Source: an uncultured Clostridia bacterium (GTDB lineage Bacteria > Bacillota > Clostridia > TANB77 > CAG-508). From it: a stretch of DNA of 64,000 nt. Made by a program: the position numbers and the translations under genes. The notes beneath the pieces were generated by a model. The model did no database searches. It was not told the origin of the DNA and saw only the letters and a list, made by a program, of their open reading frames with translations. This document shows positions 206 to 39,627 of the stretch, in pieces. Within the stretch, counting starts at the first letter, position 1, and each line of letters starts with the position of its first letter. Location of the stretch: positions 10,324-74,323 of the forward strand of contig CANQTV010000002.1 of the NCBI GenBank assembly GCA_947626875.1. The letters run 5' to 3'.

Positions 206-3002
206 AATAAAAATACATGAAGTTGCAAAAAAACTAGAGTTAACAAGTAAAGAGGTAATTGATATAGCAAAACAATTAAAAATTGAAGTAAAAAGTCATA
301 TGAGTAGTATAACAGAAGAAGAAATGGCAAAAATAGAAAAAAAGGTTAAAAAATCAGCAGTAAAAAAAGAAGAGAAAAAAGAACCAAAGGCACCATTTAT
401 TATTAGGAGAGAAGTAATTATCAATGAAGATAAATCAAAGAAAGAAGAAGTAAAAAAGGAATCAAAAAGAGAAAATGTAGGTTTTGTAGAAAGAAAACAA
501 AATGCAGATTATAATATTGTTTATCGTAATAAACCAAATAAACCAAAAACGGTGAGTGAATTATTTGGTTTGAAAACAACAAATAATAATCAACAAGCAA
601 AAGCAGAACCAGTAAAAACTGAAAAAGCTGAAAAAACTGAAAAGCCAAAAGAACAGTTAAAAGAACAACCAAAAGAATCAAAAACTGTACAAGAGCAAGC
701 AGAAGTGCACAATCATATGCAAACACAGCCAGTACAAACAAAACAACATATGCAAAATTCAAATCAACAAAGTAGAAATAAAGATAATAATTTTCGCCAA
801 TATAATAATAGAAACAATCATGGAGACAATAGATTTAATAACCGTAAAAATGGAACAAATCAAAATCAAAGTTATCAAAACCGCTTTGGAAATCAAAGGC
901 GCCCATTAGATGAAAAAGGAATTGAAAAAAACATAAAAAACATCATGTCTGCAGATATAGGTGAAAAAGAAGTCGTAAGGGAATACAATAAAAATATTGA
1001 TAAGCAAAAAAATAGTAATAAATTTGAAGAAAATAGGGGAAAGAAAACCAGAAATAGAAGAAACGGAAATGAAAATTCTTTTGATGAAGGTAAACTAAAA
1101 AGCCTAAAACAAACAAGTAAATTATCGCATATGTTTGATGATCAAGAAGGTGGAATGTTAGATTATTATGATTTAACAACACAAAGAGGAAGAAAAGGCA
1201 AGAAAAAACCAAGTAAAGGAAATGAAGAAAGGAATAAGCAGAAAATTTTCAAATTAACAGAAATAGAAATACCGGAAAATATTACGGTAAAAGATTTAGC
1301 TGCTGAGATGAAAAAAACCACAGCAGAAGTTATCAAAAAATTACTAGGATATGGCATTATGGCAACAATTAATAATGAAGTTGACTTTGACACAGCTTTC
1401 TTAGTAGCAGGGGAATTTGGTATTACAGCAAAGAAAAAGGAAACAATAACAGAAGAAGATATTTTGTTTGATGATTCTGAAGATAGTCAAGATGAGTTAC
1501 AAGAAAGACCACCAGTTGTTGTAGTAATGGGACATGTAGACCATGGAAAAACATCTTTATTAGATACAATCCGTAAAACAAATGTTATTGAAGGAGAAGC
1601 AGGTGGTATTACACAGGCGATAGGTGCATATATGGTAAATGTAAATGGTAGACAAATTACATTTCTAGATACACCAGGGCATGAAGCATTTACTGCTATG
1701 AGAGCTAGAGGTGCACAAATTACAGATATTGCAATATTAGTAGTTGCTGCAAATGATGGTATCATGCCACAGACTGTAGAAGCAATAAATCATGCAAAAT
1801 CAGCAGGAATACCAATTATTGTTGCTATTAACAAAATTGATTTACCAGATGCTAATATTGACAAAGTAAAACAAGAATTGATGAACTATGAATTAGTACC
1901 AGAAGAATGGGGAGGAGACACTATTTGTGTACCAATTTCTGCAAAGAAAAATGTAAATATAGATCAATTACTAGAAATGGTATTATTACAAGCAGATGTA
2001 TTAGAATTAAAAGCAAATCCTCATAAACAAGCAAAAGGTGTTGTAATTGAAGCAAGACTTGACAAATCAAAAGGTGCTATTGCAACAATGTTAGTACAAA
2101 GAGGAAAACTAGATGTAGGTGATACAATAGTAGTAGGTTCTTCAATTGGAAGAATCAGAGTCATGACAAATGAAAAAGGCAAAAAAGTAAAATCAGCTAC
2201 ACCATCTACACCAGTAGAAATTATGGGATTAACAGATGTACCAGAAGCGGGAGACACATTCTATGAGGTTAAAGATGAAAAAACAGCAAAACATTTAATA
2301 GAAAGAAGAAAACGTCAAGCAAGAGAAAAAGCTATCAATCAAGTAACAAAAGTAACATTAGATAATTTATTTACTCAAATGGAAGAAGGAAAATTAAAAG
2401 TATTAAACTTAATTGTCAAAGCAGATGTACAAGGTTCTGTTGAAGCAGTAAAACAATCTATGGAAAAACTAGCTAATGATGAAGTTAGAGTAAAAGTAAT
2501 TCACCATGCAACAGGAGCAGTAAATCAATCAGATGTTACATTAGCAAAAGTGTCAAATGCTATAATTATTGCTTTTAATGTAAGACCAGATGCAGTGGCA
2601 AAAGAAATGGCAGAAAAAGATGAAGTAGAAATTAAACAATATTCTGTTATTTATCAAGCTATTGAAGATGTTGAATTAGCAATGAAGGGAATGTTAGATC
2701 CTAAATTTGAAGAAAAAGTCATAGGAAATGTAGAAGTAAGACAAACATTTAAGATTTCAAATGTTGGAACTATTGCAGGAAGTTATGTATTAAGCGGAAA
2801 GGTAGAAAGAAATGCAGGAGTTAGAGTAATTCGTGATAATGTAGTAATTCATGAAGGTAAACTTGCAACATTGAAGAGATTTAAAGATGATGTAAAAGAA
2901 GTTACAAAAGGATTTGAATGTGGTATTCAAATCGAAAACTATGATGATATCAAAGAAGGAGATAATATCGAAGTATATGTCATGGAGGAAATCAAGAGAT
3001 AG
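183..3002 (+). CDS. infB: translation initiation factor IF-2
   Basis: 939 aa with G-domain motifs [20 protein letters not shown] and NKID, and a conserved C-terminal domain. The N-terminal region is a K/E/N/Q-rich low-complexity linker. The start is uncertain: ATG 183, or TTG 198 behind a GGGGGTGA SD. Confidence 0.95.
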
Positions 3003-3115
3003 GGAAAAGGGGACGTCCTTTTTTTCCCTATCAAAATATTCCCTATTTGTGATTTTGTGATATAGAATAAAGAGGGAAAAACGGAATAGGGAAAAAAAGG
3101 ACGTCCCCTTTTCCC
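3002..3115. repeat. family-1 palindromic intergenic element, complete copy
   Basis: The left arm GGGAAAAGGGGACGTCCTTTTTTTCCC (3002-3028) and its exact reverse complement (3089-3115) flank the inner inverted module TATCAAAATATTCCCTATTT / ...GGAATA. The first G is the last base of the infB TAG. Confidence 0.9.
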
Positions 3116-3133
3116 TTAGGAAAGGAGCAAACT

Positions 3134-8990: not shown

Positions 8991-10394
8991 ATGGAAATTT
9001 ATTTATATAATACATTGACAAAAGAAAAAGAAATTTTCAAACCAATTAATCCAGATGAAATAAAAATTTATTCTTGTGGACCGACAGTATATAAAGATGC
9101 AACAATAGGAAATTTGAGAACAAATGTATTTCAAGATGTATTAAGAAGAGTTTTTCAATATAATGAATATAAAATAAAGCATGTAATGAATATAACAGAT
9201 GTAGGTCATTTAGTTTCAGATGGTGATGAAGGGGAAGACAAAATGATAAAATCTGCAAGAGAACAACATAAAACACCATTAGAAATTGCAGAATATTATA
9301 CAAAACTATTTTTTAAAGATTTAGAAGATTTGAATATTCAAACACCTGAAATTATATGTAAAGCAACAGAGCATATTTCAGAAATGCTTGAGTATGTAGA
9401 AGAATTGCTTAAAAATGGATATGCTTATGAAACTTCAACAGCAATATATTTTGATATTTCTAAATTAGACAAATATCCAATATTATCAAACCATGATTTA
9501 GAAGAACAAAAAGCAGGGGCTAGAGTGCAAGTTGATGAAGAAAAGAAAAATCCATATGATTTTGCATTATGGATAAAAGCACCAGAAAATCATTTGATGA
9601 AGTGGGATAGTCCATGGGGACCAAGTTATCCAGGTTGGCATATTGAATGTTCAGCAATGGGTCAGAAATATTTAGGAGAACAATTTGACATACATACAGG
9701 AGGAATTGATTTAATCCCAACACATCATGAAAATGAAATTGCACAAAGTAAAGGTAAATGTGGAAAAATTCCAGCTAATTACTGGTTACATGGAGAATAT
9801 TTATTAATCAATGGTGGAAAAATGTCAAAAAGTCTAAATAATGTATATTTATTGAAAGACATTGAAGAAAAAGGATATGATCCATTGGTATATAAGTTGT
9901 TTTGTTATTCTTGCCATTACCGTAACAAATTAAACTTTACATGGGAAGGAATAGAAGCAACTGCAAAATCATTAGAAAGATTGCGTAATAGTTATCAGAT
10001 GCATTTAAATGGAACAGATGAGTTAGAAGAAAGTGAAAAACAGCAATTAATAGAAATTAAAAGTAATTTTCATAAAGCAATTAATGATGATATGAATATG
10101 CCATTAGCATTAAGTTATGTATGGGAAGTTGCAAAGTTTGATAAAAAATCAAAGGAAATAGCTAAATTATTAGCAAAATTTGATACAGTTTTGGGAATAA
10201 AAATTGATAAAGAAAAACAAGAAATTTCACAAGAAATTCCAAAGGAAGTATTAGAAATAGTAAAAGAAAGAGAACAAGCAAGGGCACAAAAAGATTGGGA
10301 AAAATCAGATAAGCTAAGAGATAAAATTAAAGAAATGGGATATGAAGTGAAAGATACAAAGGAGGGCTCTCAAATCTTAAAAATATTGAGTTGA
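8991..10394 (+). CDS. cysS: cysteine--tRNA ligase
   Basis: Motifs YSCGPTVY, GWHIECS and KMSKS (GGKMSKSLNN). 467 aa. Confidence 0.93.
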   Translation: MEIYLYNTLTKEKEIFKPINPDEIKIYSCGPTVYKDATIGNLRTNVFQDVLRRVFQYNEYKIKHVMNITDVGHLVSDGDEGEDKMIKSAREQHKTPLEIAEYYTKLFFKDLEDLNIQTPEIICKATEHISEMLEYVEELLKNGYAYETSTAIYFDISKLDKYPILSNHDLEEQKAGARVQVDEEKKNPYDFALWIKAPENHLMKWDSPWGPSYPGWHIECSAMGQKYLGEQFDIHTGGIDLIPTHHENEIAQSKGKCGKIPANYWLHGEYLLINGGKMSKSLNNVYLLKDIEEKGYDPLVYKLFCYSCHYRNKLNFTWEGIEATAKSLERLRNSYQMHLNGTDELEESEKQQLIEIKSNFHKAINDDMNMPLALSYVWEVAKFDKKSKEIAKLLAKFDTVLGIKIDKEKQEISQEIPKEVLEIVKEREQARAQKDWEKSDKLRDKIKEMGYEVKDTKEGSQILKILS

Positions 10395-10513
10395 AAAATA
10401 ATTACAATTTTGACTGTGTCAACTTTCATTAAAAACGCGGTTACATACAAAGAGTATGTGCCCTTGCCTTTTTAATAAAAGTTTCCTTGTCAAAATTTAA
10501 TTCTTTTCCAACT
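10389..10513. repeat. family-2 long-hairpin intergenic element, copy A
   Basis: AGTTGAAAAATAATTACAATTTTGAC...GTCAAAATTTAATTCTTTTCCAACT folds as one about 60-bp imperfect hairpin. The cysS TGA (10392-10394) lies inside the left terminus. Confidence 0.88.
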
Positions 10514-10547
10514 GAGAGTTTGTACTTAGGAAAGGAATGTGATAGAA

Positions 10548-11546
10548 ATGGCAATATTATTACCAGGTGGAGCAGGATATATTGGAAGTCATACAGCAGT
10601 GGAATTATTAAATGCGGGAAAAGAAATTATTATTATAGATAATTATTCAAATAGCAAACCACAAGTATTAGAAGAAATTAAACAAATTACAGGAAAAGAC
10701 TTTAAATCATATATAATGGACTACCGAGATAAAGAAAAACTGGAAAAGGTATTTAGGGAAAATAAAATCGAAGCAGTTATAAATTTTGCAGGTTATAAAG
10801 CAGTAGGAGAATCGATTGAAAAGCCATTAGAATATTATGATAACAATATAATGGGTGCAATTGCTTTATTAGAAATAATGAAGAAATATGAGGTAAATAA
10901 ATTTATATTTAGTTCATCAGCAACAGTTTATGGAGAACCAGAAAAAATACCAATTACAGAAGATTGCAGAACTGGAGGAACAACAAATCCATATGGTAAT
11001 ACAAAGTTATTTATAGAACAAATCTTAAAAGATGTATATAATGCTGATAATACATGGGACATTTGTATTTTAAGATATTTCAATCCAGTAGGTGCACATG
11101 AAAGTGGAAAAATAGGGGAAGAACCAAATGGAATTCCAAATAATTTAATGCCGTATATTGCAAGAGTAGCAGTAGGGCAATTAGAACAATTATCTGTATT
11201 TGGAGATGATTATGATACACCAGATGGAACTGGTGTAAGAGATTATATTCATGTTGTTGATTTAGCTAAAGGTCATGTATGTGCATTAGAAAAATTGGAA
11301 AAAGAGCAGAAAGGATTATATATTTATAATTTGGGAACAGGTACTGGATATAGTGTATTAGACATGGTAAGAGCGTTTGAAAAGGCAACAGGAAAGACTG
11401 TGCCATATAAGATAGCTCCAAGAAGAGCAGGAGATATTGCTAGTTGTTATGCAGATCCAACAAAAGCAAAACAAGAGTTAGGATGGGAAGCAACAAAAAC
11501 ATTAGAAGATATGTGTAAAGATTCATGGAACTATATACAACATTAA
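10548..11546 (+). CDS. galE: UDP-glucose 4-epimerase
   Basis: Rossmann motif GGAGYIGSH, catalytic YGNTK (YxxxK), and FNPVGAH. The start is taken at ATG 10548 (MAILLPGG...). Confidence 0.9.
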
Positions 11547-11562
11547 GAAAGGAATGAGATGA

Positions 11563-13281
11563 GTGATAGATTTTAAACAAGAAATAGCAAATACAATTTC
11601 AAAAGTAATTGAAATAAATGCGAATGAATTAAAAGAATATATTGAGATTCCAAAAGATACAAAAAATGGAGATTATGCTTTTCCTTGTTTTCGTCTTGCA
11701 AAAGAATTAAAAAAAGCACCACCAGTAATAGCACAAGAAATTAAAGAAAAAATAGAAATTGATACAAATTATATAGAAAAGGTAGAAATAGCAGGAGGAT
11801 ATTTAAATTTTTATGTACCAAAAATGAAATTGGCTAAAGAAGTTTTAGGAGAGATTGCAAAACAGGAACAATATGGTGCAAGTGATATTGGAAAAGGCAA
11901 AAATATAGTAATTGATTATTCAGCACCAAATATAGCAAAACCATTTCATATTGGGCATCTACGTTCAACAGTAATTGGAGCAGCACTTTATAAAATATAT
12001 AAATATTTAGGATATAATGTAATAGGAATTAACCATTTAGGAGATTATGGTACACAATTTGGAAAATTGATTGAAGGATATAGGTTATGGGGAAACGAAT
12101 ATGACATTGATAAAAATCCTATTGAAGAATTGACGAAAATATATGTTAGGATTAATGAACTGTGTAAGAAAGACGAAAATGTTCTACAAGCTTGTCGTGA
12201 TAATTTCAAAAAATTAGAAGATGGTGATGAATATTGTGTTACACTATGGAAAAAATTTAGAGAACTAAGTTTACAAGAATTTCAAAAAGTTTATGATTTG
12301 CTAGGAAGTGAATTTGATTCATGGAATGGGGAAGCTTTTTACTCTGATAAAATGCCAGAAGTAATAGACATATTAGAAAAGACGGGTAAGCTAGTTGAAT
12401 CACAAGGTGCAATGATTATTGATTTAGAAGAGCAAGGAATAAATACACCTTGTATTATAAAAAAGACAAATGGTTCAACAACATATGCAACAAGGGATTT
12501 AGCAGCAATATTATATAGAGCAAGAACTTATGATTTTGATAAAGCATTATATGTTACTTCATATGAACAAGTATTACATTTTAAACAAGTTTTTGAAGTT
12601 GCAAAATTGTTAGGCTTAGATGAAAAATATACAAAAGGTTTAGAACATGTGTCTTTTGGAATGGTATTATTACCAACAGGAAAAATGTCTACAAGGGAAG
12701 GAAATATTGTTAAATTAGAAGATTTATTGCAAGAGTCAATGACAAGAGCAAAAGAAATTATCGAAGAAAAAAATCCAAGTTTACCAAACAAAGAAGAAAT
12801 TAGTAAAAAAGTTGGAATAGGGGCAATTATATTTAATGATTTAGCAAATAGTCGTGTTAAAGATGAAATATTTGACTGGAACCAAATTTTGAACTTCCAA
12901 GGGGAAACAGGTCCATATATTCAATATACCTATGTGCGTACACAAAGTGTATTAGAAAAAGCAGGTATTGAAAAAGATGAATTAAAAATAGAAAATGTAA
13001 AAGTGGAAACATTACAAGATAGTTATTCTCAAAATATTATAAAATTATTATACAATTTTAATGAGATTTTACAACAGGTAACAGAAAAGAATGAGCCATC
13101 AATTTTGTCACGTTATTTAATTGAATTAGCAAAAGCGTTTAGTGTTTTTTATAATGAAAATAAAATTATGGTGGAAGAAACAGATGTAAGAGATAGTAGG
13201 TTATATTTAACTTATGCAGTTGGCAAAGTTTTGAAGATGGGGGCGGAGTTATTGGGTATGGAGATGCCCGCTAAAATGTAA
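11563..13281 (+). CDS. argS: arginine--tRNA ligase
   Basis: HIGH-type motif PFHIGHLRS, a GKMSTREG loop, and a C-terminal DALR anticodon-binding end ...MPAKM. GTG start behind an AGAAAGGAA SD. Confidence 0.92.
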   Translation: MIDFKQEIANTISKVIEINANELKEYIEIPKDTKNGDYAFPCFRLAKELKKAPPVIAQEIKEKIEIDTNYIEKVEIAGGYLNFYVPKMKLAKEVLGEIAKQEQYGASDIGKGKNIVIDYSAPNIAKPFHIGHLRSTVIGAALYKIYKYLGYNVIGINHLGDYGTQFGKLIEGYRLWGNEYDIDKNPIEELTKIYVRINELCKKDENVLQACRDNFKKLEDGDEYCVTLWKKFRELSLQEFQKVYDLLGSEFDSWNGEAFYSDKMPEVIDILEKTGKLVESQGAMIIDLEEQGINTPCIIKKTNGSTTYATRDLAAILYRARTYDFDKALYVTSYEQVLHFKQVFEVAKLLGLDEKYTKGLEHVSFGMVLLPTGKMSTREGNIVKLEDLLQESMTRAKEIIEEKNPSLPNKEEISKKVGIGAIIFNDLANSRVKDEIFDWNQILNFQGETGPYIQYTYVRTQSVLEKAGIEKDELKIENVKVETLQDSYSQNIIKLLYNFNEILQQVTEKNEPSILSRYLIELAKAFSVFYNENKIMVEETDVRDSRLYLTYAVGKVLKMGAELLGMEMPAKM

Positions 13282-13294
13282 TTCTTTTCCAACT
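13279..13294. repeat. family-2 solo right terminus
   Basis: TAATTCTTTTCCAACT is identical to the right end of copies A and C. Its first three bases are the argS TAA. Confidence 0.6.
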
Positions 13295-13302
13295 AGGAAA
13301 TT

Positions 13303-17485: not shown

Positions 17486-17614
17486 AGTTGAAAAACAATT
17501 ATAATTTTGGCTGTGTCACAACGATTAAGGAATACAGTTGACTAAAGTCAACTGCATACTGACGCTGTAACAGCTAAAGCTTAACAGCCTCAGCAATTTA
17601 ATTCTTTTTCAACT
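17486..17614. repeat. family-2 element, copy B (same termini, different core)
   Basis: AGTTGAAAAACAATTATAATTTTGGCTGTGTCAC...CAGCCTCAGCAATTTAATTCTTTTTCAACT. The core holds its own hairpins CAGTTGACTAAAGTCAACTG and GCTGTAACAGC. Confidence 0.85.
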
Positions 17615-17652
17615 TAGTGACCATATACGTTTAGAAAGGAATGAAATAAAAT

Positions 17653-19662
17653 ATGAAGTATACAAAAGAAGCACTTACTTTAGAAAAAGGAATTGAAAGA
17701 GAATGGATTATAACAAATGGCATTGGCGGATTTGCTAGTTCCACTAGTATTGGAATTAATACCAGAAAGTATCATGGTTTGTTAATAGCTCCATTAACAC
17801 CACCAGCTAGGAGATATTTAATATTATCTAAACTAGATGAAAGTCTTGAAATTGGTCAAAAGCATTATGATTTATATTCAAATATGTGTGAAAATTATAT
17901 ATCCAAAGGATATCAATATCAAACAAGTTTTGAAAAAGAATATGTACCTGTATTCACATATAGTGTAGAAGGTGTGCAGATCACAAAAACAATTTGTATG
18001 GAATATGGAAAAAATACTGTAGGTGTGCATTATAAAATAAAAACAAAGGACAAGCCTGTAAAACTAACTTTGGCACCAATTATGAATTTTAGAGATTTTC
18101 ATACAATGAGTACAAATCATGATTTTCAGGTAAAACAACAAATAAACGGAACAAAGGTAAGAGTTGTTATAGATGATGTGATACAATTTCCAATATATAT
18201 GAATTTGTCAGAAGGAAATTATGTGCAACATGAACATGATATATTTTCACATATGTTTTATGTAGAAGAGCAAAAAAGAGGTTTTTATCCAGAGGAAAAC
18301 CATGCAGTAATTGGAAGATATGAAGTAACAATTCCAGAAAATACAACAAAAGAGATTTCATTTGTGTGTTCATTTGAAGAGAATATAGAAGAAATAGATG
18401 TTAAAAAATTAATTCAAAAAGAAAAAAGAAGACTTCAAACAATTGTAAAAAAATCAGATTTAATTGAAGAACCAGAAGCTGAAGAAAAAAAGGAACTTAT
18501 TAAAAATTTAATTATTAGTACAGATAGTTTTATTGCATATAGACCAACATTTAGGTTACATACAATTATAGCAGGATATCCATGGTTTTTAGATTGGGGA
18601 AGAGATAGCTTAATTGCATTAGAAGGGCTATTATTAAAAACAAAAAGATTTGACATAGCCAAAGAAGTGTTATTGACAATGGTAAGAGATATCAAATATG
18701 GATTGGTTCCAAATGGGTATTCAGGTTTTGATAATCGTCCTCTATACAATAGTGTAGATGCATCTTTGTTATTATTTGAACAAATACAAAAATATATTGA
18801 ATATACTGGTGATGAAAGCTTTATTGAAAAAGAAATATTTAGTAAGCTAGAAACGATCATTGAAAATTATATGAATGGAATTGATGTTGATAATAACAAT
18901 ATTTATTTAGATTCAGACAATTTACTTGTATCAGGAACAGACACAACACAAAATACATGGATGGATGCAAAAATTGGTGATTTTGCTGTAACACCACGAA
19001 ATGGTAAAGCGGTAGAGATTAATGCAATGTGGTATAATAGCTTAAAAATCATGGAAAGTTTATGTAAAAAATTTAAGAAAACAACACAAGCAAAGAAATA
19101 TGCTGAATTAGCGAAAGCAACTAAAAATGCATTTGAAGATAAATTTTATAATAGTCGTAGAAAATGTTTGTATGATGTATTAGGAGATAGCAAAATCAGA
19201 CCAAATCAATTATTTAGTTTAAGTTTGACATATCCAATTATTGAACCAAATTCTGAGATTGCAGAAAATATTATTGCAGTAGTGGAGAAAAAGTTATTAA
19301 ATCCATATGGATTGCAAACATTAGCAAAAGGTGAGAAGGGATATGTTGCGGTTTATGAAGGAGATCCTAAAAAACGAGATATGAGTTATCATCAAGGAAT
19401 TACTTGGACATGGTTATTAGGAATTTATTTTGATAGTTTATGCAATATACAAAAAGCACAAAAAGGTAAAACTAAAAAAGAAAAATGGACAAAAAAAATA
19501 CAAGAATTTAAAGAAAATGTAACTCAAACATTTTCAAAAGAAATAGAAGAAAGAGGTTGTGTAGGAAGTATTGCAGAAATTTACGACTCAAATAAACCAT
19601 ATGCACCAAAAGGTGCAATATCACAAGCATGGAGTGTAGCAGAAATTTTGAGAATTATTTAG
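17653..19662 (+). CDS. glycogen debranching enzyme (amylo-alpha-1,6-glucosidase family)
   Basis: N-terminal EWIITNGIGGFASST...RKYHGLL, a GDE_C-type motif GYPWFLDWGRDSLIAL, and C-terminal SQAWSVAEILR. Confidence 0.85.
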   Translation: MKYTKEALTLEKGIEREWIITNGIGGFASSTSIGINTRKYHGLLIAPLTPPARRYLILSKLDESLEIGQKHYDLYSNMCENYISKGYQYQTSFEKEYVPVFTYSVEGVQITKTICMEYGKNTVGVHYKIKTKDKPVKLTLAPIMNFRDFHTMSTNHDFQVKQQINGTKVRVVIDDVIQFPIYMNLSEGNYVQHEHDIFSHMFYVEEQKRGFYPEENHAVIGRYEVTIPENTTKEISFVCSFEENIEEIDVKKLIQKEKRRLQTIVKKSDLIEEPEAEEKKELIKNLIISTDSFIAYRPTFRLHTIIAGYPWFLDWGRDSLIALEGLLLKTKRFDIAKEVLLTMVRDIKYGLVPNGYSGFDNRPLYNSVDASLLLFEQIQKYIEYTGDESFIEKEIFSKLETIIENYMNGIDVDNNNIYLDSDNLLVSGTDTTQNTWMDAKIGDFAVTPRNGKAVEINAMWYNSLKIMESLCKKFKKTTQAKKYAELAKATKNAFEDKFYNSRRKCLYDVLGDSKIRPNQLFSLSLTYPIIEPNSEIAENIIAVVEKKLLNPYGLQTLAKGEKGYVAVYEGDPKKRDMSYHQGITWTWLLGIYFDSLCNIQKAQKGKTKKEKWTKKIQEFKENVTQTFSKEIEERGCVGSIAEIYDSNKPYAPKGAISQAWSVAEILRII

Positions 19663-19763
19663 GGAATTGGGGACGTCCTTTTTTTCCCTATCCAAATTTT
19701 CCCTATTTTGGATAAGGAAGATAAAGAATATTAAAATAGGGAAAATTTAGATAGGGGAAAAAA
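19662..19763. repeat. family-1 element, right GC core missing
   Basis: The left arm GGGAATTGGGGACGTCCTTTTTTTCCC and the inner pair CTATCCAAATTTTCCCTATTTT / AAAATAGGGAAAATTTAGATAG are present. The right side stops at GGGGAAAAAA, just before the ruvC ATG. Confidence 0.85.
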
Positions 19764-21361: not shown

Positions 21362-22036
21362 ATGTTAAAAAGAATAGGAATAGTATTATTAGTAATTATG
21401 ACATTTGCAGTAACAATAATATTTGTGCAACATTCTGTAGAAGCATTATCAAAATATGGTTCAAGAGGTAATGAAGTAAAAGAAATACAAACAAAATTGA
21501 AGAGATGGGGATATTATAAGGGACAAATAGATGGAATTTATGGAAGTCAAACTTTAGAAGCGGTCAAATATTTCCAAAGAAAAAATGGATTGACAGCTGA
21601 TGGTATTGCAGGACCAGCAACATTAAAAGCTATGGGAATTACATCATCATCTTCAAACACGTCAAGTGGAAGTGGTTCTACGAATTCAAGCAATACGAAT
21701 TTATTAGCAAGATTAGTATATGGAGAAGCAAGAGGAGAACCATATTCTGGACAAGTGGCAGTAGCAGCAGTTGTATTAAATCGTGTAAAGAGTAGCTCTT
21801 TTCCAAATTCAATATCAGGAGTGATATATCAATCAGGTGCATTTAACGTTGTATCAGATGGACAAATAAATTTAACACCAAATGATACAGCCAAAAAAGC
21901 TGCACAAGATGCAATAAATGGGTGGGATCCAAGTTATGGTGCTATTTATTATTTTAATCCATCAACAGCAACAAATAAGTGGATATGGTCAAGACCAATG
22001 ACAGTAACTATTGGGAAACATAGATTTTGCAAGTGA
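21362..22036 (+). CDS. SleB/CwlJ-family cell wall hydrolase with N-terminal peptidoglycan-binding domain
   Basis: Signal/TM segment, then a PG_binding_1 repeat (GSRGNEVKEIQTKLKRWGYYKGQIDGIYGSQT..AVK.FQ...GL.ADGIAG), an S-rich linker, and a Hydrolase_2 core (LARLVYGEARGEPY.GQVAVAAVVLNRV). Confidence 0.85.
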   Translation: MLKRIGIVLLVIMTFAVTIIFVQHSVEALSKYGSRGNEVKEIQTKLKRWGYYKGQIDGIYGSQTLEAVKYFQRKNGLTADGIAGPATLKAMGITSSSSNTSSGSGSTNSSNTNLLARLVYGEARGEPYSGQVAVAAVVLNRVKSSSFPNSISGVIYQSGAFNVVSDGQINLTPNDTAKKAAQDAINGWDPSYGAIYYFNPSTATNKWIWSRPMTVTIGKHRFCK

Positions 22037-22063
22037 GGGAATAGGGGACGCCCTTTTTTTCCC
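22037..22063. repeat. family-1 element, solo left arm
   Basis: GGGAATAGGGGACGCCCTTTTTTTCCC lies immediately after the TGA of the SleB-like gene. Confidence 0.8.
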
Positions 22064-22065
22064 TC

Positions 22066-22094
22066 TTGCCAATAAAGGTAGAATGTGATAAAAT
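22066..22094 (+). promoter_or_regulatory. putative promoter of dnaE
   Basis: TTGCCA-N17-TAAAAT with TGn directly upstream of the -10 hexamer (TGATAAAAT). It begins right after the family-1 solo arm. Confidence 0.45.
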
Positions 22095-26307: not shown

Positions 26308-26866
26308 ATGTATTTAATCATAGGATTAGGAAATCCAGAAGAAGAATATAGTCATACAAGGCACAATATGGGATTTGATACAATTAATCATTTATCTAAA
26401 AAATATGGAATAGAAGTAACAAAAAAGAAATTTAAAAGTTTATATGGAACAGGAATTATAGAAGGGGAAAAAGTAATACTCTTAAAGCCACAAACATATA
26501 TGAATTTAAGTGGAGATGCTATTATAGAAGCAATGGATTACTATGACATTGAAACAGAAGATTTAATTATTATATATGATGATATGGACATTGAAAAAGG
26601 GAAAATAAAAATTAGAAAAAAAGGTGGAGCAGGTTCTCATAATGGAATGAAATCTGTTGTAGAAAATTTACAAACAGAAGAATTTACTAGGATAAGAGTG
26701 GGAATAGGAAGGCCACAGCATGAATATGATGCAATAAATTATGTGATTGGGAAAATATCAAAAGAAGAACAAGAAATTTTAGAAAAAGCAACTCGGAAAA
26801 GCAGCAGAAATCATACCAGAAATCATAAAAAATGGTGTAGACAATGCTATGAATAAATATAATTAA
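26308..26866 (+). CDS. pth: peptidyl-tRNA hydrolase, with an apparent 1-nt frameshift about 22 codons before the end
   Basis: GLGNPEEEYSHTRHNMGF and SGDAI...DD.D...G.I..RKKGGAGSHNG motifs. After codon 164 the canonical tail AAEIIPEIIKNGVDNAMNKYN is read in the +1 frame and ends at 26866. The uninterrupted frame ends at 26856 with an atypical basic tail. Confidence 0.85.
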
Positions 26867-26896
26867 AATGTGTATTAGTAAATACAGGAGGTAGAA

Positions 26897-28078
26897 ATGT
26901 TAGAAGTTTTTATTAGCAAAAAGAATGAGCAAGAAAGAATTGCACTTGTTGAAAATGGAAATCTAGTAGAATATTACGAAGAAGACCCAGATACAGATAG
27001 AAAAGAGGGAAATATTTATATAGGAAAAGTAAAAGACATAATTGTCGGTATGCAATCAGCATTTATAGATATAGGCACAGAAAAAAATAGTTTTATACAT
27101 GTAAGAGATATTTTGCCAAAAGTAGATGAGAAGAATGAAGTATCGAATATGGATGTACAAATTAGAGATGTTATAAAGCCAAATCAAAAATTATTGGTAC
27201 AGGTAAAAAAAGATAGTAATGAAAAAAAAGGAGCAAGAGTTTCAACACATATTAGTTTACCAGGAAGATATATTGTATTAATGCCAAATACTGATATTAT
27301 TACAATTTCGCAAAAAATAGAAAGTAAAAAAGAACAGGAGAGATTACTAAATTTAGTAAAAGAGCATATATCAAAGGAAAATGGTGCTATTATTCGTACA
27401 TCAAGTATGAAAAAAGACAAAGAAATAGTTGCAGAAATTCAAAGTTTAGAAAAAAAATGGAGAGAAATTCAAGAAGAATATGATAACAATACTGAGGGAG
27501 AAGGTAAATTAATTTATCGAGCAGAAACAATTGTTGAAAAAATGTTGTTAGATTTATGCAATCAAAATATTGAAAATATAGTAACAGATGATCAAGCAGA
27601 ATATGAAAAAACTTTAAAAATTAAATCAGAAACACCAGAATTAGAAAATACAAAAATAAATTTAGAGCATAAAGATATATTTGAAAAATATGAAATTGAG
27701 ACGCAAATAGAAAAAAGATTAAATAGAAAAATTTGGCTAAAATGTGGAGGATTTATCACTATTGATAAAACAGAAGCATTAACAGCAATTGATGTTAACA
27801 CAGGAAAATATACAGGAGACAAAAGTTTAGAGCAAACTTTATATAAAGTTAATGAAGAAGCAACAATTGAAATTGCTAAACAAATTAGATTACGTGATAT
27901 TGGTGGAATTATTATTATTGATTATATAGATATGAAAAAACAAGAAAACAAAGATAAAATTCAAAAATTATTGGAAGAAAGGTTAAAATTAGATAGAAGT
28001 AAAACACAAATAGAAGGATTTACAAAATTAGACTTAATGGAGATGACAAGAAAGCATATTTGTAGTCACAAAGAATAG
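26897..28078 (+). CDS. rng: RNase E/G-family ribonuclease (short form, ends before Zn-link/small domain)
   Basis: S1 domain (GNIYIGKVKDIIVGMQSAFIDIG), DNase-I-like region ALTAIDVNTGKYTG and GGIIIIDYIDM. It ends at ...EMTRKHICSHKE. Confidence 0.85.
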   Translation: MLEVFISKKNEQERIALVENGNLVEYYEEDPDTDRKEGNIYIGKVKDIIVGMQSAFIDIGTEKNSFIHVRDILPKVDEKNEVSNMDVQIRDVIKPNQKLLVQVKKDSNEKKGARVSTHISLPGRYIVLMPNTDIITISQKIESKKEQERLLNLVKEHISKENGAIIRTSSMKKDKEIVAEIQSLEKKWREIQEEYDNNTEGEGKLIYRAETIVEKMLLDLCNQNIENIVTDDQAEYEKTLKIKSETPELENTKINLEHKDIFEKYEIETQIEKRLNRKIWLKCGGFITIDKTEALTAIDVNTGKYTGDKSLEQTLYKVNEEATIEIAKQIRLRDIGGIIIIDYIDMKKQENKDKIQKLLEERLKLDRSKTQIEGFTKLDLMEMTRKHICSHKE

Positions 28079-28178
28079 GGAAAAGGGGACGTCCTTTTTT
28101 TCCCTATTGAAATATTCCCTGTTTTTTTATATAAGAGGGAAAAATAGAATAGGGAAAAAAAGGACGTCCCCTTTTCCC
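28078..28178. repeat. family-1 palindromic intergenic element, complete copy
   Basis: The arms at 28078-28104 and 28152-28178 are identical to those of the 3002 copy. TA flanks both ends (28076-28077 and 28179-28180). The rimO SD follows directly. Confidence 0.9.
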
Positions 28179-28192
28179 TAGGAGGAATAAAA

Positions 28193-29533
28193 ATGAAAGT
28201 AGGATTTATATCACTAGGATGTAGTAAAAATTTAATTGATACAGAAATAGCAGTAGGTATGTTTAAAGAACATAAATATATTATTGAAAATCGTCCAGAA
28301 GAAGCAGATATTATTGTGATAAATACTTGTGGATTTATAGATGATGCAAAAGAAGAGGCAATCAATACAATTTTAGAAATGGCAGAATACAAGAAAAGGA
28401 AATGTAAATACCTAATTGTTATGGGATGTTTAGTACAAAGGTATTATGAAGAATTATTAAAATGCTTACCAGAAGTTGATTTATTTATTAAATTAGAAGA
28501 ATATGATAAATTATGGGAAAAAATTGATGATTTATTAAAAAGAGATATTGTAATTAAATCAAAAGGGAAAGCAAAAAAAATACCAATGTTAGATCAAATA
28601 GATTATATGAATAGAGTTGTTACAACTGGAAAAGATTATGCTTATTTGAAGATAGGTGAAGGATGTAGTAATAGATGTACATATTGTGCAATTCCAAATA
28701 TTAGAGGACCTTTTATTAGTCGCCCAAAAGAAGAAATTATTGATGAAGCAAAAATGTTAGCTAAAAAAGGAATTACAGAAATTATTGTTATTGCACAAGA
28801 TACTACAAAATATGGAATTGATATTTATGGAGAACCAAAATTAGTAGAATTACTAGAAGAATTAGCACACATAAAAGAAATAAAATGGATTCGCTTCTTA
28901 TATTCATATCCAGAAGGAATAACACAAGAATTGATTGATTTAGTAGCAAAAAATGATAAAATTGCTAACTACTTTGACATCCCAATTCAACATATATCAA
29001 ATCGAGTATTGAAAAGAATGAATAGAAGGACTACAAAACAGGAGATTGAAATTTTAATAGAAAATATTCGTAAACAAATACCAGATGCTGTAATAAGAAC
29101 AAGTTTGATTGTAGGTTTCCCAGGAGAAACTAAAGATGAATTTGAAGAATTAAAAGAATTTGTGAAAAAGATCCATTTTGATAAATTAGGAGCATTCATG
29201 TATTCAAAAGAAGAAGGGACACCAGCAGCAAGATTACCAGAACAAATTCATGGAAACACTAAGAAATCAAGATATAATCAGATTATGAAAATACAGCAAA
29301 TTATATCAAAACAAAATTTGGAGAAACGTATTGGAAAGAAATGCCAAGTTTTAATAGAAGATATTTCTTTTGATGGAAAATATTATGTAGGTAGGACAAT
29401 GCAAGATGTACCAGAAATAGATGGCTTGGTGTATATTAAAAATACAAGTCCTAAAAATATGTTACATATGTATGTTATGTGCGAGATAGAGGATGTGCAG
29501 GGAGAGTATGATGTGATGGCAAAATTTATATAG
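28193..29533 (+). CDS. rimO: ribosomal protein S12 methylthiotransferase
   Basis: UPF0004 N-terminal domain (GFISLGCSKNLIDTE), radical-SAM CSNRCTYCAIP, and a C-terminal TRAM domain. Confidence 0.88.
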   Translation: MKVGFISLGCSKNLIDTEIAVGMFKEHKYIIENRPEEADIIVINTCGFIDDAKEEAINTILEMAEYKKRKCKYLIVMGCLVQRYYEELLKCLPEVDLFIKLEEYDKLWEKIDDLLKRDIVIKSKGKAKKIPMLDQIDYMNRVVTTGKDYAYLKIGEGCSNRCTYCAIPNIRGPFISRPKEEIIDEAKMLAKKGITEIIVIAQDTTKYGIDIYGEPKLVELLEELAHIKEIKWIRFLYSYPEGITQELIDLVAKNDKIANYFDIPIQHISNRVLKRMNRRTTKQEIEILIENIRKQIPDAVIRTSLIVGFPGETKDEFEELKEFVKKIHFDKLGAFMYSKEEGTPAARLPEQIHGNTKKSRYNQIMKIQQIISKQNLEKRIGKKCQVLIEDISFDGKYYVGRTMQDVPEIDGLVYIKNTSPKNMLHMYVMCEIEDVQGEYDVMAKFI

Positions 29534-31904: not shown

Positions 31905-33188
<1,284 letters not shown>

Positions 33189-33360
33189 GGGAATTGGGGA
33201 CGCCCTTTTTTTCCCTAGCCGGGAATTGGGGACGCCCTTTTTTTCCCTATCTAATTCTTCCCTATTTGTATATTATTAAAAAATTATTTTTCCTATCTAA
33301 ATAGGGAAGAATTAGATAGGGAAAAAAAGGGCGTCCCCAATTCCCGGCTAGGGAAAAAAA
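33189..33360. repeat. family-1 element, nested/duplicated copy
   Basis: Two tandem left arms (33189-33215 and 33221-33247) are joined by TAGCC. They are followed by the inner module, a full right arm (33319-33345), GGCTA, and a truncated second right arm GGGAAAAAAA. Confidence 0.9.
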
Positions 33361-33376
33361 TAATTTGTAAAAATAG

Positions 33377-33908: not shown

Positions 33909-34472
33909 ATGAAAATAATTGAAAAAATCACATTAATTATATATTCTAATATCATGCTAATTGTATCTATAATAGCGTGTTTACTAGTATTTGGATGGTT
34001 AGATTTACAAGTTGTAATAAATATTGCAACAGCATGTATTACAACAGATCCAGCATCAAAAATTGTTTTAGGGGCAAGTGTAATATTTATATTATTGTCT
34101 ATTAGATGTATTTTCTTTGATCCAACTTCAAAAGCAGATATTAAAGATAGACAAGGAATTCTTTTAGAAAATGAAAATGGAAAACTAATGATATCAAAAG
34201 AAACAATTGAAAACTTAGTAGAATCAGTTGCAAGAGATTTCCAAGATGCAGATAATATTTCAACAAGAGTCGAACTAGATAGAGAAAATAATGTTACTAT
34301 ATTTGCGAATCTAGTTGTTACATCAGATGCAATTATAAAAGATTTATCAGCAAATCTTCAAAATAAAATCAAAGAAAGAATAAAAATAGCAACAGACTTA
34401 GAAGTAAAAGAAGTAAATATTTCAGTAAAAAAAGTAGCACCAGTACAAGAGGAACAGGAAGGAATGAGATAA
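33909..34472 (+). CDS. amaP: alkaline shock response membrane anchor protein (AmaP-like)
   Basis: Two N-terminal TM helices, then an Asp23-like soluble part. It lies directly after asp23. The start is ATG 33909 behind AAGGAG. Confidence 0.65.
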   Translation: MKIIEKITLIIYSNIMLIVSIIACLLVFGWLDLQVVINIATACITTDPASKIVLGASVIFILLSIRCIFFDPTSKADIKDRQGILLENENGKLMISKETIENLVESVARDFQDADNISTRVELDRENNVTIFANLVVTSDAIIKDLSANLQNKIKERIKIATDLEVKEVNISVKKVAPVQEEQEGMR

Positions 34473-35101: not shown

Positions 35102-35110
35102 AAATAAGTA

Positions 35111-36304: not shown

Positions 36305-36334
36305 AAATATACAAAAGAAAGGAATGATATTAAA

Positions 36335-39294: not shown

Positions 39295-39304
39295 TTAGAA
39301 AAAA

Positions 39305-39352: not shown

Positions 39353-39410
39353 AAAAATTTCTAATGTCGAATTTTGTCAAAAATTTGTGATAAAAATATA
39401 TCGCAAAGTA

Positions 39411-39615: not shown

Positions 39616-39627
39616 GGGAGGAGAAAA

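Follow-up and report, generated by a model that had tools for sequence, protein, structure and literature searches.

The 64-kb stretch of an uncultured Clostridia genome analyzed here (hereafter, the window) carries copies of a long palindromic repeat at the edges of its genes, raising the question of whether these are mobile DNA, signals acting in the mRNA, coding sequences, or recombination sites. An initial annotation had described a family of long imperfect hairpins with conserved termini (family 2), and the family is genuine: the window contains three full copies, two right-end remnants, and one 30-nt remnant, far above chance. The left terminus, TTGAAAAATAATTACAATTTTGAC, has three matches in the window (with up to 3 mismatches) versus 0.01 expected, the right terminus, GTCAAAATTTAATTCTTTTCCAA, has three versus 0.00 expected, and the total of three full copies plus three remnants per 64 kb compares with an expectation of ~0.01. 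The full copies lie where they had first been placed, the two solo right ends and the minimal form are present at their sites, and the names given to the flanking genes agree with our synteny-based calls. An nhmmer profile built from 81 copies and run on the window found no further family-2 copies.

All of these features are on the + strand. Copy A (positions 10389 to 10513) is a 125-nt end-to-end hairpin with a type 1 core, AGTTGAAAAAT...TTTTCCAACT, and its left terminus supplies the cysS stop codon through an internal TGA (10392 to 10394). Its 3' tail, GAGAGTTTGTACTTAGGAAAGGAATGTGATAGAA (10514 to 10547), reaches the ATG of a galE-like gene at 10548 and, as seen by comparing filled and empty sites, stands in place of the GGAGGG ribosome-binding site of the relatives. 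Copy C (47218 to 47342), also of core type 1 (GGATTGAAAAAT...TTTTCCAATC) and ~90% identical to copy A, lies between hrcA and grpE and similarly supplies the hrcA stop codon (internal TGA at 47221 to 47223); the segment that follows (47343 to 47376) consists of the tail, ATATTAAAACCT, then TAG and the native grpE ribosome-binding site, AAAGGAAGGAGAATAAAAT, with the grpE ATG at 47377. Copy B (17486 to 17614) begins 7 nt past the stop codon of a CofD/YvcK-family gene and has only the two arms in common with copies A and C, its interior consisting of a different core and a nested hairpin, module X (GCATACTGACGCTGTAAC...TTAACAGCCTCAGCA, 17554 to 17595); its 3' tail (17615 to 17652) contains TTTAGAAAGGAATGAAATAAAAT and ends at the ATG of a GDE-family gene at 17653. 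The genes 5' of copies A, B, and C were assigned by synteny with the called genes of relatives as CysS (PF01406), CofD/YvcK-family (PF01933), and HrcA (PF01628). One right-end remnant, TAATTCTTTTCCAACTAG (13279 to 13296), is directly 3' of argS, and its first three bases, TAA, are the argS stop codon; the other, ATTGTAATTCTTTTCCAACC (42458 to 42477), is at a convergent junction, flanked by a stop codon and an intrinsic terminator. The 30-nt minimal palindrome, CTAGTTGAAAAATAATTATTTTCCAACTAG (52031 to 52060), is in the 5' UTR of an Alg14-family gene, right behind a TATAAT box.

The general anatomy emerges from 110 paired-end copies, counted in 930 kb of loci together with the window after removal of one double count. 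The unit is a hairpin of ~122 nt with arms GG-TTGAAAAATAATTACAATTTTGRC and GYCAAAATTTAATTCTTTTCCAA-CC, 24 to 30 nt long and ~80% A+T, both of which are nearly invariant, although for the left arm this is partly by construction because the loci were fetched by an exact left-arm pattern. The arms GTTGAAAAATAATTACAATTTTGRC and GYCAAAATTTAATTCTTTTCCAAC pair across 22 positions with two fixed mismatches, and are terminal inverted repeats. The cores between them are interchangeable (types 1, 2, and 3), and in most copies the hairpin is followed by a short 3' tail with the consensus CAGATTTGTGCCTTAAGAAAGGAATG / AGATTTGTGCCT. Copies range from 52 to 209 nt with a mode of 122 to 123, and the paired-end copies fall into size classes of ~52, 121 to 123, ~129, and ~172 nt. 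The hairpin is maintained by compensatory changes. The covariation analysis that had been proposed at the outset gives clear statistical support, with 98.3% of cells paired and 13 pairs changed on both sides; none of 500 shuffles is as good, and slid controls are only 28 to 52% paired. Two base pairs outside TTG...CAA also covary, being Watson-Crick in 106/110 and 93/110 copies with three or four pair types. The proposal that each full copy folds end to end into a single hairpin holds for copy A and fails for copy B, whose top strand forms a terminal stem with internal branches rather than one simple hairpin. With Rfam release 15, there are no matches in the whole window at gathering thresholds, and this is not a known RNA family; relaxed thresholds return only generic long-hairpin (miRNA precursor) models, scoring 10 to 25 bits against cut-offs of 39 to 140.

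Which strand folds is a separate matter. The initial annotation noted a recurrent A opposite C in the terminal stem, and took it as a hint that the folded species is bottom-strand single-stranded DNA or antisense RNA. The mismatch is indeed recurrent (28/34 type 1 and 38/41 type 2 copies), and the bottom strand is the more stable in 78/81 copies (mean, -45.0 vs -33.6 kcal/mol), including copy A (-48.1 kcal/mol, z -9.9, vs -35.0 kcal/mol, z -7.2, for the top-strand RNA) and copy B (-52.0 vs -34.8 kcal/mol). One type 2 pair (A·C 23, A-U 12, G-C 4) would read on the bottom strand as a classical A-U / G·U / G-C series, and there is a minus-strand promoter-like sequence, TTGACA-16 nt-TATTTT, in the left arms of copies A and C. 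However, the bottom-strand excess derives wholly from three or four positions at which A·C is fixed; mismatches that arise sporadically show no asymmetry (A·C 12 vs G·U 12 in type 1; 11 vs 10 in type 2), and we rejected general bottom-strand selection on these grounds. The promoter-like site occurs at chance frequency and is directed out of the element, so that a transcript would not include the hairpin. Moreover, the + strand is the leading strand in the window, and the lagging-strand template therefore exposes the top strand, contrary to what bottom-strand single-stranded DNA would need. Orientation follows the transcription of the flanking genes, and because the elements are co-oriented with genes inside operons the top strand is certainly transcribed. 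The hint is thus not borne out, and we consider it improbable that the bottom strand, as RNA or as DNA, is the functional folded species.

A scan of species-representative genomes identified family 2 in at least 118 stretches from at least ~80 uncultured gut Clostridia assemblies at the species level, and the further copies anticipated from the window alone are abundant. Genomes carry multiple copies, with at least seven loci from the metagenome-assembled genome (MAG) CAMJYG and at least six from RUG13298. In CAMJYG, copies at four loci are 100% identical and one at another locus is 96.7% identical; the tails of the four identical hairpins differ from one another, so gene conversion confined to the hairpin could mimic a recent burst. 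Copy A is 95% identical to a RUG13298 copy at a different locus, and the cysS genes of the two organisms share 69% nucleotide identity. Phage and plasmid collections searched with blastn gave zero family-2 matches, and a pattern scan of IMG/VR gave seven, all of them chance occurrences inside ORFs; the concern that the termini might be the ends of a known insertion sequence is met by the finding of no IS, phage, or plasmid match. Family 2 has not been described before, and is probably a further example of the small non-autonomous mobile repeats known in other bacteria. As had been suggested, it is unrelated in sequence to a second repeat in the window, family 1, and occupies the same niche: the junction 5' of a rimO/miaB-like gene has family 1 in the window, family 2 in two species, and nothing in one.

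Comparison of filled and empty sites provides the strongest view of how copies come and go. Relatives were reached by protein homologue look-ups, and syntenic segments were compared with one genome examined per species. In the closest relatives, which have 82 to 89% nucleotide identity and 144 kb of synteny with this genome, all six window sites are tight, empty junctions, and no family-2 copy is present in the 144 kb of syntenic DNA; the window copies are therefore lineage-specific gains. The site of copy A is empty in three relatives (L125, L126, and L127; cysS-galE gap, 11 to 18 nt), that of copy B in two (L125, 37-nt gap; L127, 20-nt gap), and that of copy C in six (L119 to L124; hrcA-grpE gap, 16 to 25 nt), with TGAAAGGAAGGAGAATAAAATG directly 3' of hrcA in L119. 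Conspecific strains L141 and L142 have copy C, and the L142 tail at this site, ATATTTGTACCT, is nearer to the family tail than is that of the window; the sequence of a third strain, L143, matches that of the window at 100% identity over 15.7 kb. In L141, a low-coverage contig links copy C to another gene, possibly through chimeric assembly at the repeat rather than genuine recombination between copies. The 3' junction of argS has a full copy in another species (L095), the right end alone in the window, and only a terminator in close relatives. The remnant at 42458 to 42477 is missing from the same junction in L119, and the site orthologous to 52031 to 52060 has a 52-nt form in RUG13298 (L051) and none in L119 or L121. 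Conversely, the junction at window positions 26856 to 26897 is empty in the window and filled in an orthologous location elsewhere (L007).

The solo ends and the minimal form are deletion derivatives of full copies, as the argS junction illustrates, and the minimal forms could have arisen through loss of the sequence between short direct repeats such as GTCAAA. Module X, a nested hairpin of 48 to 53 nt, interrupts family-2 copies at several positions; it is found at differing positions in the family-2 copies of seven other loci and also in other repeats, and in copy C it is present or absent among conspecific strains whose HrcA proteins are 99% identical. It is a second mobile hairpin nested in family 2. 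Overall, family 2 shows copies gained with respect to the closest relatives, copies identical to one another in a single genome, and decay by deletion.

The positions of the copies are as constrained as their structure. They reside in very short operon-junction spacers or in 5' UTRs, and their orientation matches that of the downstream gene in 95/103 copies, with or without a tail; the upstream and downstream genes are both on the + strand in 72 cases and both on the - strand in three, of which one survives inspection. Because orientation is almost always along transcription, family 2 is expected to be cotranscribed with its flanking genes. At one locus (L002) the copy follows the downstream genes even though most of the coding sequence and the GC skew are on the opposite strand. 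IS200/IS605-derived palindrome-associated elements (PATE) insert 3' of a fixed tetra- or pentanucleotide, without target duplication and in a strand-specific orientation relative to replication; in family 2 any such strand bias is confounded with gene direction. The stop codon of the upstream gene is within the left arm in 18 copies, and the arm shuts two of the three reading frames within 0 to 3 codons, with the TGA of TTGA and the TAA of AATAATTA; the TTG frame alone is left open, for a median of 27 codons vs 0 and 3. On the right, the element usually runs through its 3' tail into a AGAAAGGAATG-type ribosome-binding site of the next gene. Stop codons on one side and a ribosome-binding site on the other presumably explain why insertion is tolerated.

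An orientation bias this close to absolute, together with constant placement between a stop codon and a ribosome-binding site, is not what a purely selfish MITE usually shows, and would also fit a host-selected RNA element. On one alternative reading, family 2 is primarily a cis-acting RNA device of polycistronic mRNAs, with mobility secondary: an intercistronic hairpin cut by a double-strand-specific RNase, or protecting transcript ends, and combined with translation signals (a stop codon in the left arm and a Shine-Dalgarno [SD] sequence behind the right arm). Ribosomes could then enter via an upstream SD sequence, unfold the hairpin, and carry translation over into the next gene. The compensatory changes and the dependence of orientation on the downstream gene, including at L002, agree with such a role, as do RNase III and RNase E effects on record for transcribed Correia and ERIC elements (PMC10969869). 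In addition, copies of the 5'-UTR type have a GGAG/GAGG peak 5 to 8 nt upstream of the TTG (32 motif hits; background, 0.0036 per nt or ~0.2 per position), and copies with the upstream SD tend also to have the 3' tail (odds ratio 3.7, p = 0.003). The TTG of copy C shares bases with the hrcA stop codon (TTGA), has GAGGTG 4 nt upstream, and begins a frame that stays open for 45 codons, closing at the TAG immediately ahead of the grpE SD; the triplet separating tail and SD is TAA, TAG, or TGA in most copies. Nonetheless, the element is dispensable at all six window sites, given that the closest relatives have no copies there, the downstream genes are functionally unrelated housekeeping genes, and the top strand, the one transcribed, is the weaker folder. 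The length of the TTG frame ranges between 4 and 55 codons, and whether it is open through the hairpin shows no association with an upstream SD (p = 0.63); this SD may just as well be a native one, orphaned when an insertion struck the start region of its gene. We hold a primarily host-selected device to be a reasonable but clearly less probable account than mobile DNA, with which it would be compatible, by analogy with Correia and ERIC elements.

The same TTG could be read as the start of a small protein or leader peptide (MKNNYNFG...), since it has an SD at canonical spacing in many copies, opens the sole frame through the left arm, and is followed by 45 to 55 open codons in the type 2 consensus and in copy C. 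But stop codons turn up at many places from codon 5 onward, a loop that differs in length by one nucleotide shifts the frame, and about two-thirds of full-length copies have a stop within the hairpin, with that of copy A coming after 13 codons. Cores of unlike sequence are interchangeable, and sequence changes track base pairing rather than codons. With variable ORF lengths and no conserved ORF, a protein-coding reading is largely refuted and we regard it as very improbable.

As to insertion, no consistent target-site duplication is readable from the three filled/empty pairs, and none of the candidate readings (TA, TAA/TAG, TAAG, TGAG, or AAGG) holds across copies or across these pairs. TA flanks are found in ~15/110 copies; the left flank is frequently (T)AAGG but variable; and TAG...TAG borders copy B. 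Copies A and C point to replacement or microhomology (TGAAA, GAAAGGAA) rather than duplication, and at copy A the native stop codon and ribosome-binding site seem to have been replaced rather than split. A search for transposases with matching ends, which the initial annotation had recommended, found no autonomous element or transposase with these termini in the 1.1 Mb of fetched loci, no pair of left and right ends 0.3 to 5 kb apart, and no transposase beside the solo ends. The sole transposase-like gene in the window encodes a YhgA-like protein (Transposase_31, PF04754; 39628 to 40611), which was tested as a possible mobilizer because it is in a 1.3-kb lineage-specific insertion adjoining a family-1 half site. 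It was rejected: the 1.1 Mb of repeat-bearing loci contain a single weak homologue, and its closest paralogues are in repeat-free relatives, with no repeats nearby and no link to them. We also rejected a reading in which the tail is native sequence that serves as the target of insertion; its AGAAAGGAATG part does occur widely as a native ribosome-binding site, but its GATTTGTGCC part is missing from repeat-free relatives and nearly always joined to a hairpin.

Palindromes of this length directly after genes, with GTTG...CAAC ends and conserved unpaired positions, also recall integron attC sites, which recombine as a folded single strand. However, the neighbors are syntenic core genes (cysS, argS, and hrcA-grpE-dnaK) rather than cassettes, and the order of the ends, read from the upstream gene, is the reverse of that in the attC consensus (RYYYAAC ... 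GTTRRRY). There is no integrase among the ten window ORFs scanned against Pfam or the remainder covered by synteny, which yielded the YhgA-like protein only. An intrinsic terminator is equally rejected, since a T-run is missing behind the stem and no terminator-like site was found. We give almost no credence to either the attC or the terminator interpretation.

Family 2 more closely resembles several classes of small interspersed repeats. As in MITEs, there are terminal inverted repeats, a small size, many copies, no conserved ORF, and presence/absence variation at orthologous sites. Correia elements (CREE/NEMIS) of Neisseria are likewise interspersed repeats of ~100 to 155 bp with terminal inverted repeats and a long hairpin, are mostly near genes and cotranscribed with them, and occur in full-length and internally deleted forms. 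Correia elements have a TA target duplication and insert in both orientations; family 2, with so few TA flanks, shows no clean duplication in the filled/empty pairs and has an almost fixed orientation, and it differs in its AT-rich Clostridia hosts and in having no sequence similarity. The transcribed Correia hairpin is cut by RNase III and can alter the expression of its neighbors (PMC10969869). ERIC/IRU elements (~127 bp) share with family 2 their size, an imperfect end-to-end palindrome, location in transcribed intergenic regions of operons, and lack of a known transposase. They are confined to Enterobacteria and Vibrio, and have a single conserved core where family 2 has interchangeable ones; ERIC elements are not reported to provide stop codons or to adjoin a ribosome-binding site, as family 2 does, and there is no Rfam or sequence match between them. 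In Yersinia, ERIC is reported to have orientation-dependent effects on flanking mRNA (PMC10969869).

REP, BIME, and REPIN sequences are also extragenic palindromes that are mosaic and modular, host other small insertions, and evolve in concert within a genome. REP/REPIN elements lack a target duplication, and family 2 similarly has two inverted units forming an extragenic hairpin, with no clean duplication seen in the filled/empty pairs. REPs are 20 to 40 nt, G+C-rich, and have a conserved tetranucleotide; the A+T-rich family-2 arms are not of this type. REPs are tied to a single-copy RAYT gene flanked by REPs, whereas no Y1/HUH gene was seen in the family-2 DNA examined (8-kb blocks around copies and the window), and family 2 is missing altogether from the syntenic DNA of the closest relatives, unlike the long vertical persistence of REPIN-RAYT pairs. 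In REPINs, two inverted arms form a long hairpin (PMC3116915). Among Firmicutes, BOX and RUP of Streptococcus pneumoniae and bcr1 of the Bacillus cereus group are small interspersed repeats whose copy numbers, as for family 2, differ strongly among close relatives, and BOX is similarly modular, with conserved pairing ends (boxA and boxC) and variable middle modules. For RUP and bcr1, the target duplications are defined and IS partners are suspected. The sequences of all three differ from family 2, and none is described with stop and start signals at its ends. Repeats of the BOX/RUP/bcr1 type are transcribed with neighboring genes (PMC3049150).

We conclude that family 2 is probably a non-autonomous palindromic DNA repeat of the MITE or REPIN-BIME kind, mobile or at least recently inserted. 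Mobilization would occur in trans, by an enzyme encoded outside the window, and without a clean target duplication, an HUH/Y1-type or recombination-based route would fit better than a DDE transposase. Once inserted, the hairpin could form in mRNA and serve as a processing or stability determinant. A more radical version, which we regard as unlikely but worth stating, is that family 2 is a transposase-independent parasite of translation signals that acts as a translational relay. Recombination or template switching would bring it into operon junctions at short sequences common to all of them: a stop codon with an A-run at its left end and, at its right, the start-codon region or the AGAAAGGA core of the Shine-Dalgarno sequence. 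There it would swap the native spacer for a start-like TTG with stop codons, the hairpin, the tail, and a Shine-Dalgarno sequence. Ribosomes might then stop or reinitiate at TTGA, melt the hairpin, and pass on to the next cistron, with the fixed A·C mismatches perhaps keeping the mRNA hairpin meltable. If this is so, family 2 would be a mobile element with its target set by translation grammar and not by a DNA-binding transposase.

Taking family 2 to be a mobile repeat, it and its nested second mobile hairpin are newly documented in a large, uncultured, and medically discussed gut clade, in which, to our knowledge, nothing is known of mobile DNA or RNA processing. The repeats are a practical hazard for assembly, as the possible chimera at copy C illustrates, and if the hairpins are processed in mRNA they could provide ready-made intercistronic parts for Clostridia engineering. 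The repeat-laden genomes, such as CAMJYG01 and CADAHH01/RUG13298, and their repeat-free congeners (GCA_947624365.1, GCA_947627605.1, GCA_947625565.1, and GCA_947625645.1) offer a clean system in which to find the mobilizing enzyme by phylogenetic profiling. Finally, the copies split tightly coupled housekeeping operons (hrcA-grpE and cysS-galE), exchange ribosome-binding sites, and change one or two C-terminal residues of essential proteins, which makes an effect on expression likely.

The three full copies of family 2, a long-hairpin repeat of ~125 nt, that the initial annotation had placed in the window are present at 10389-10513 (copy A), 17486-17614 (copy B), and 47218-47342 (copy C), as are the two solo right ends (13279-13296 and 42458-42477) and the minimal form, a 30-nt palindrome at 52031-52060; a profile built from 81 copies finds no others in the window. 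The 23-24-nt termini (arms) each match the window three times with ≤3 mismatches, against shuffle expectations of 0.01 for the left and 0.00 for the right. Copies A and C are ~90% identical, and B has only the arms in common with them, its interior consisting of another core and a nested 42-nt hairpin module (17554-17595). The proposal that each full copy forms a single end-to-end hairpin is correct for A, but the top-strand fold of B has a terminal stem with internal branches. The window has a G+C content of 29%, and the GC skew is strongly positive on the + strand, which is therefore the leading strand.

The elements are not confined to this genome. One left-arm pattern scan of species-representative genomes, following up the suggestion to search with the termini, yielded at least 118 stretches from ~80 different assemblies (counted by accession prefix), every one from uncultured gut Clostridia; hosts among the matches listed include Clostridium sp. 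CAG:245 and CAG:780, and metagenome-assembled genomes (MAGs) from human, chicken, rabbit, goat, and deer. In 930 kb of sequence (fetched loci plus the window) there are 111 left/right end pairs, one being a double count of a symmetric copy, in size classes of ~52 nt, 121-123 nt (80 copies), ~129 nt, and ~172 nt. At least three core types lie between the same arms: type 1 (CGCGGTTACATAC...GTATGCGCCCTTGCC), found in A and C; type 2 (AAATTTAATCAACGTAC...GTACGCCTCATAAATTT); and type 3, found in another organism, RUG13298. The invariance of the left arm is partly by construction, the loci having been fetched by an exact left-arm pattern, and the right arm is nearly invariant although it was never used for fetching. 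We also observed a related repeat family with a type-2 or type-3 core, different ends, and a recurring flank, GCAATACTCGTTTCTTTTTGATTTTGG (loci L061, L051, and L010; the L061 copies are two in tandem, at minus-strand offsets 7632 and 7798), and cores therefore go with more than one kind of arm.

The hairpin is maintained, as is evident from covariation in the 81-copy alignment. Standard pairs occupy 98.3% of cells, both-sided changes occur at 13 of 33 pairs (226 cells), and pairing falls to 28-52% when the partners are slid; none of 500 shuffles reaches any of five pairing measures, so the covariation test proposed earlier gives statistical support to the structure. Compensatory examples include GAC/GTC versus GGC/GCC, and TAAAA/TTTTA versus TGAAA/TTTCA versus AAAAA/TTTTT. 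The two base pairs directly outside TTG...CAA also covary (Watson-Crick in 106/110 and 93/110, with three or four pair types), and complementarity beyond them is at background, so that the palindrome ends at GG-TTG...CAA-CC or variants thereof. Such covariation demonstrates that pairing is under pressure or is restored by templated correction, and is compatible with a role at either the RNA or the DNA level.

The hint that the bottom strand is the folded species is not supported. Bottom-strand RNA folds better in 78 of 81 copies (mean -45.0 versus -33.6 kcal/mol for the top strand), but when split by pair, the top-strand excess of A·C over G·U cells (89 versus 12 in type 1; 72 versus 10 in type 2) traces to three or four fixed positions; with these removed, the sporadic mismatches are symmetric (12 versus 12 and 11 versus 10, respectively), and there is therefore no general selection signature for bottom-strand wobble pairs. 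At the fixed positions, A·C alternates with A-U and, in one pair, also with G-C; these positions may either allow an enzyme to tell the two ends apart or weaken the hairpin in mRNA. On the minus strand, the left arm contains an exact TTGACA followed after 16 nt by TATTTT (10395-10422 and 47224-47251), a promoter-like site that faces out of the element and into the gene upstream, at its 3' end. Types 1 and 2 both conserve the GTCAA underlying the -35 box, and such sites are as numerous as expected from shuffles.

Comparison with the closest relatives fetched (HrcA 95% and 88%, and ArgRS 82-85% identical to the window proteins) shows the sites without insertions. Gene order is common, nucleotide identity is 82-89% over most shared genes, and the corresponding gaps are 16-25 nt for hrcA-grpE, 11-18 nt for cysS-galE, and 20-37 nt between cofD and the GDE-family gene; argS is directly followed by a terminator, and a plain 5' UTR precedes the Alg14-family gene. 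There are no family-2 copies in 144 kb of the relatives' DNA, and with such tight junctions each of the six loci in the window is therefore a gain specific to its lineage. The copy C site reads GATATG-TGA-AAGGAAGGAGAATAAAATG when empty (relative L119) and GAGGTG-[GATTGAAAAAT...CCAATCATATTAAAACCT]-TAG-AAAGGAAGGAGAATAAAATATG when filled (window), with the native ribosome-binding site retained downstream and the hrcA stop one codon later, in the left arm. For copy A, AAGATA-TAG-GAGGGAAAAATATG (relative L125) corresponds to AAAATA-[TTGAGTTGAAAA...CCAACTGAGAGTTTGTACT]-TAG-GAAAGGAATGTGATAGAAATG in the window; the GGAGGG site is lost and cysS is lengthened by two codons. No consistent target duplication emerges from these filled/empty comparisons under any reading of the flanks, and the joints share short sequences (TGAAA on the left, GAAAGGAA on the right), which would also fit recombination at microhomology.

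Turnover is evident among more distant species, in which the same junction may be empty or carry family 2 or family 1, a palindromic repeat family unrelated in sequence. A junction can also hold different cores: L105 carries type 2 at hrcA-grpE and RUG13298 carries type 3 plus module X (a small nested hairpin, see below) at the cysS 3' end, whereas the window has type 1 at both. Copies also degrade: L095 has a full copy at the junction where the window has its post-argS remnant, and deletion between short direct repeats could have produced the 52-nt and 30-nt forms as well as several truncated copies. Family 1 consists of GGGAAAAGGGGACGYCCTTTTTTTCCCTAT palindromes (window 3000-3131, 19660-19713, 22036-22068, 28076-28194, 33187-33361, and 39303-39374), and at the rimO/miaB-like junction it is present in the window, family 2 is present in L026 and L061, and neither is present in L005. 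There are 10 family-1 core matches in the window versus only one in the relatives' 144 kb, and the two families thus expanded in the same lineage.

There are signs of recent activity. Four loci of the MAG CAMJYG carry copies that show 100% identity over 123 nt (a fifth copy shows 96.7%) and have differing tails, so that the hairpin has either spread very recently or is being homogenized by gene conversion acting via the conserved arms. RUG13298 has, at a site not orthologous to that of copy A, a copy sharing 95% identity with it, whereas the cysS genes of the two organisms are only 69% identical. A distribution so patchy yet near-identical, taken with the lack of the family in the closest relatives, indicates that the element or its mover has spread horizontally, by way of inference rather than proof. 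Module X is a second, smaller mobile hairpin (~48-53 nt, AGCTNNNGCATACTGAGGCTGTAAC...TTAACAGCCTCAGCA), and the ~172-nt family-2 class contains it as an insertion. It lies at varied positions within family-2 copies and also in other repeats (window 17554-17595; loci L041, L043, L059, L069, L088, L010, and L051), in several cases directly after AAATTTNN. Strains with HrcA 99% identical to that of the window have copy C at the same place with a 52-53-nt X in the left arm (L142:2770-2822), inserted with duplication of one T at most, and X is therefore currently mobile. On a low-coverage contig of a conspecific strain (L141:1440-1580), the copy C left arm with X is joined to the right arm of another copy before an unrelated gene (MGNKYLNEAIIG...), a junction that arose either by recombination of two copies or through chimeric assembly at the repeat.

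Insertions nearly always run in the direction of the adjacent genes. Relative to the copy, the upstream and downstream genes are arranged ++ in 72 cases, -+ in 8, +- in 5, and -- in 3 (one a double count, one ambiguous, and one, L064, genuine), and this bias persists with and without the 3' tail, the stretch after the right arm. At L002, the copy follows the downstream genes where most coding sequence and the GC skew are on the other strand, a single case that favors coupling of orientation to transcription rather than replication. The upstream stop codon lies inside the left arm at the TGA of TTGA in 11 cases (including cysS and hrcA of the window) and at the TAA of AATAATTA in seven; two of three frames meet a stop in the arm within 0-3 codons, and the third, the TTG frame, continues without one for a median of 27 codons. 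In two species (L082, minus-strand offset 2956; L098, plus-strand offset 4662) a truncated left arm, TTGAAAAATAATTACAATTTTGAC, runs directly into an ORF that we read by eye as SpoIIIAD-like, and may provide its start codon and first eight codons.

About 40% of copies (47/109 scored) have the element-specific part of the tail, whose consensus is CAGATTTGTGCCT, TAA/TAG/TGA, and GAAAGGAATGWGATTAAAA, followed by the ATG of the next gene. One part of the tail, AGAAAGGAATG, is also frequent as a native ribosome-binding site, both in the window and in relatives lacking the repeats; another, GATTTGTGCC, is specific to the element, with 42 of 118 loose matches adjoining a right arm, all but ~5 of the remainder judged by reading to be chance matches in coding sequence, and none found in the relatives. 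Many native starts in this lineage have AGAAAGGAATG(A/T)GAT...ATG in place of GGAGG, frequently right behind the stop codon of the preceding gene (window 11540-11565, 34455-34475, 35090-35113, 36315-36340, 53040-53065, and 62160-62185), and at a similar rate in repeat-free relatives; this site is complementary to the very 3' end of 16S rRNA and once more to AUCA, skipping part of CCUCC. Among copies in 5' UTRs, GGAG/GAGG occurs 5-8 nt upstream of TTG far above background and is associated with the tail (odds ratio 3.7, p = 0.003). One possibility is that insertion of hairpin and tail into the start region of a gene orphaned its native Shine-Dalgarno; another is that the motif gives a functional start to a short frame running into the hairpin. 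The latter lacks statistical support, the frame being 4-55 codons long, not conserved, and unrelated in length to the motif (p = 0.63).

Several other identities were considered. An intrinsic terminator and a conserved small gene (in the TTG frame) were rejected, as was an attC-like site: the neighbors are syntenic core genes, the order of ends is inverted, and there is no integrase among the window ORFs scanned or covered by synteny. No Rfam family matches the element, phage and plasmid collections hold nothing similar (seven IMG/VR matches are coincidences in coding sequence), and no transposase with family-2 ends occurs in the 1.1 Mb examined; none of these searches linked the termini to a known mobile element. 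The sole transposase-like gene of the window encodes a YhgA-like 'Transposase_31' (PF04754, Rpn-type nuclease; 39628-40611), within a 1.3-kb insertion (39309-40625) that is lineage-specific relative to L119 and also holds a family-1 half site, ~270 nt of non-coding DNA, and a good promoter-like region. It was rejected as the mobilizer, having no association with the repeats: its paralogues in repeat-free relatives have no repeats in their vicinity, and repeat-bearing loci have only one weak homologue. Separately, a degenerate tandem array at 45674-45955 (18-nt period, nine copies in register, 61-70% identical) lies inside a minus-strand ORF (45066-45983) whose L119 counterpart is a DUF4912 protein, and is therefore probably a coding hexapeptide repeat.

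The best-supported interpretation is that family 2 constitutes a new family of palindromic repeats, mobile but non-autonomous, and similar to Correia, ERIC, REPIN/BIME, and BOX elements. The main rival, which is compatible with mobility, is that the transcribed hairpin may do something for the host such as RNase processing, as documented for Correia and ERIC elements (PMC10969869). Because no clean duplication was seen, the joints are of replacement type, X is nested, and the arm asymmetry is fixed, we infer that HUH-type or recombination-based mobilization fits better than a DDE transposase. With no Rfam, phage, or plasmid match, and none in the literature searched, the family appears to be undescribed; it is real, yet of a familiar kind, and we think it quite improbable that it acts as a mobile translational relay, one that both targets translation signals and imitates them. 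On the favored reading, family 2 colonizes the very short operon spacers of a compact, AT-rich genome; its left end terminates incoming translation and its right end leaves or supplies a ribosome-binding site, properties that would explain why it is tolerated in one orientation.
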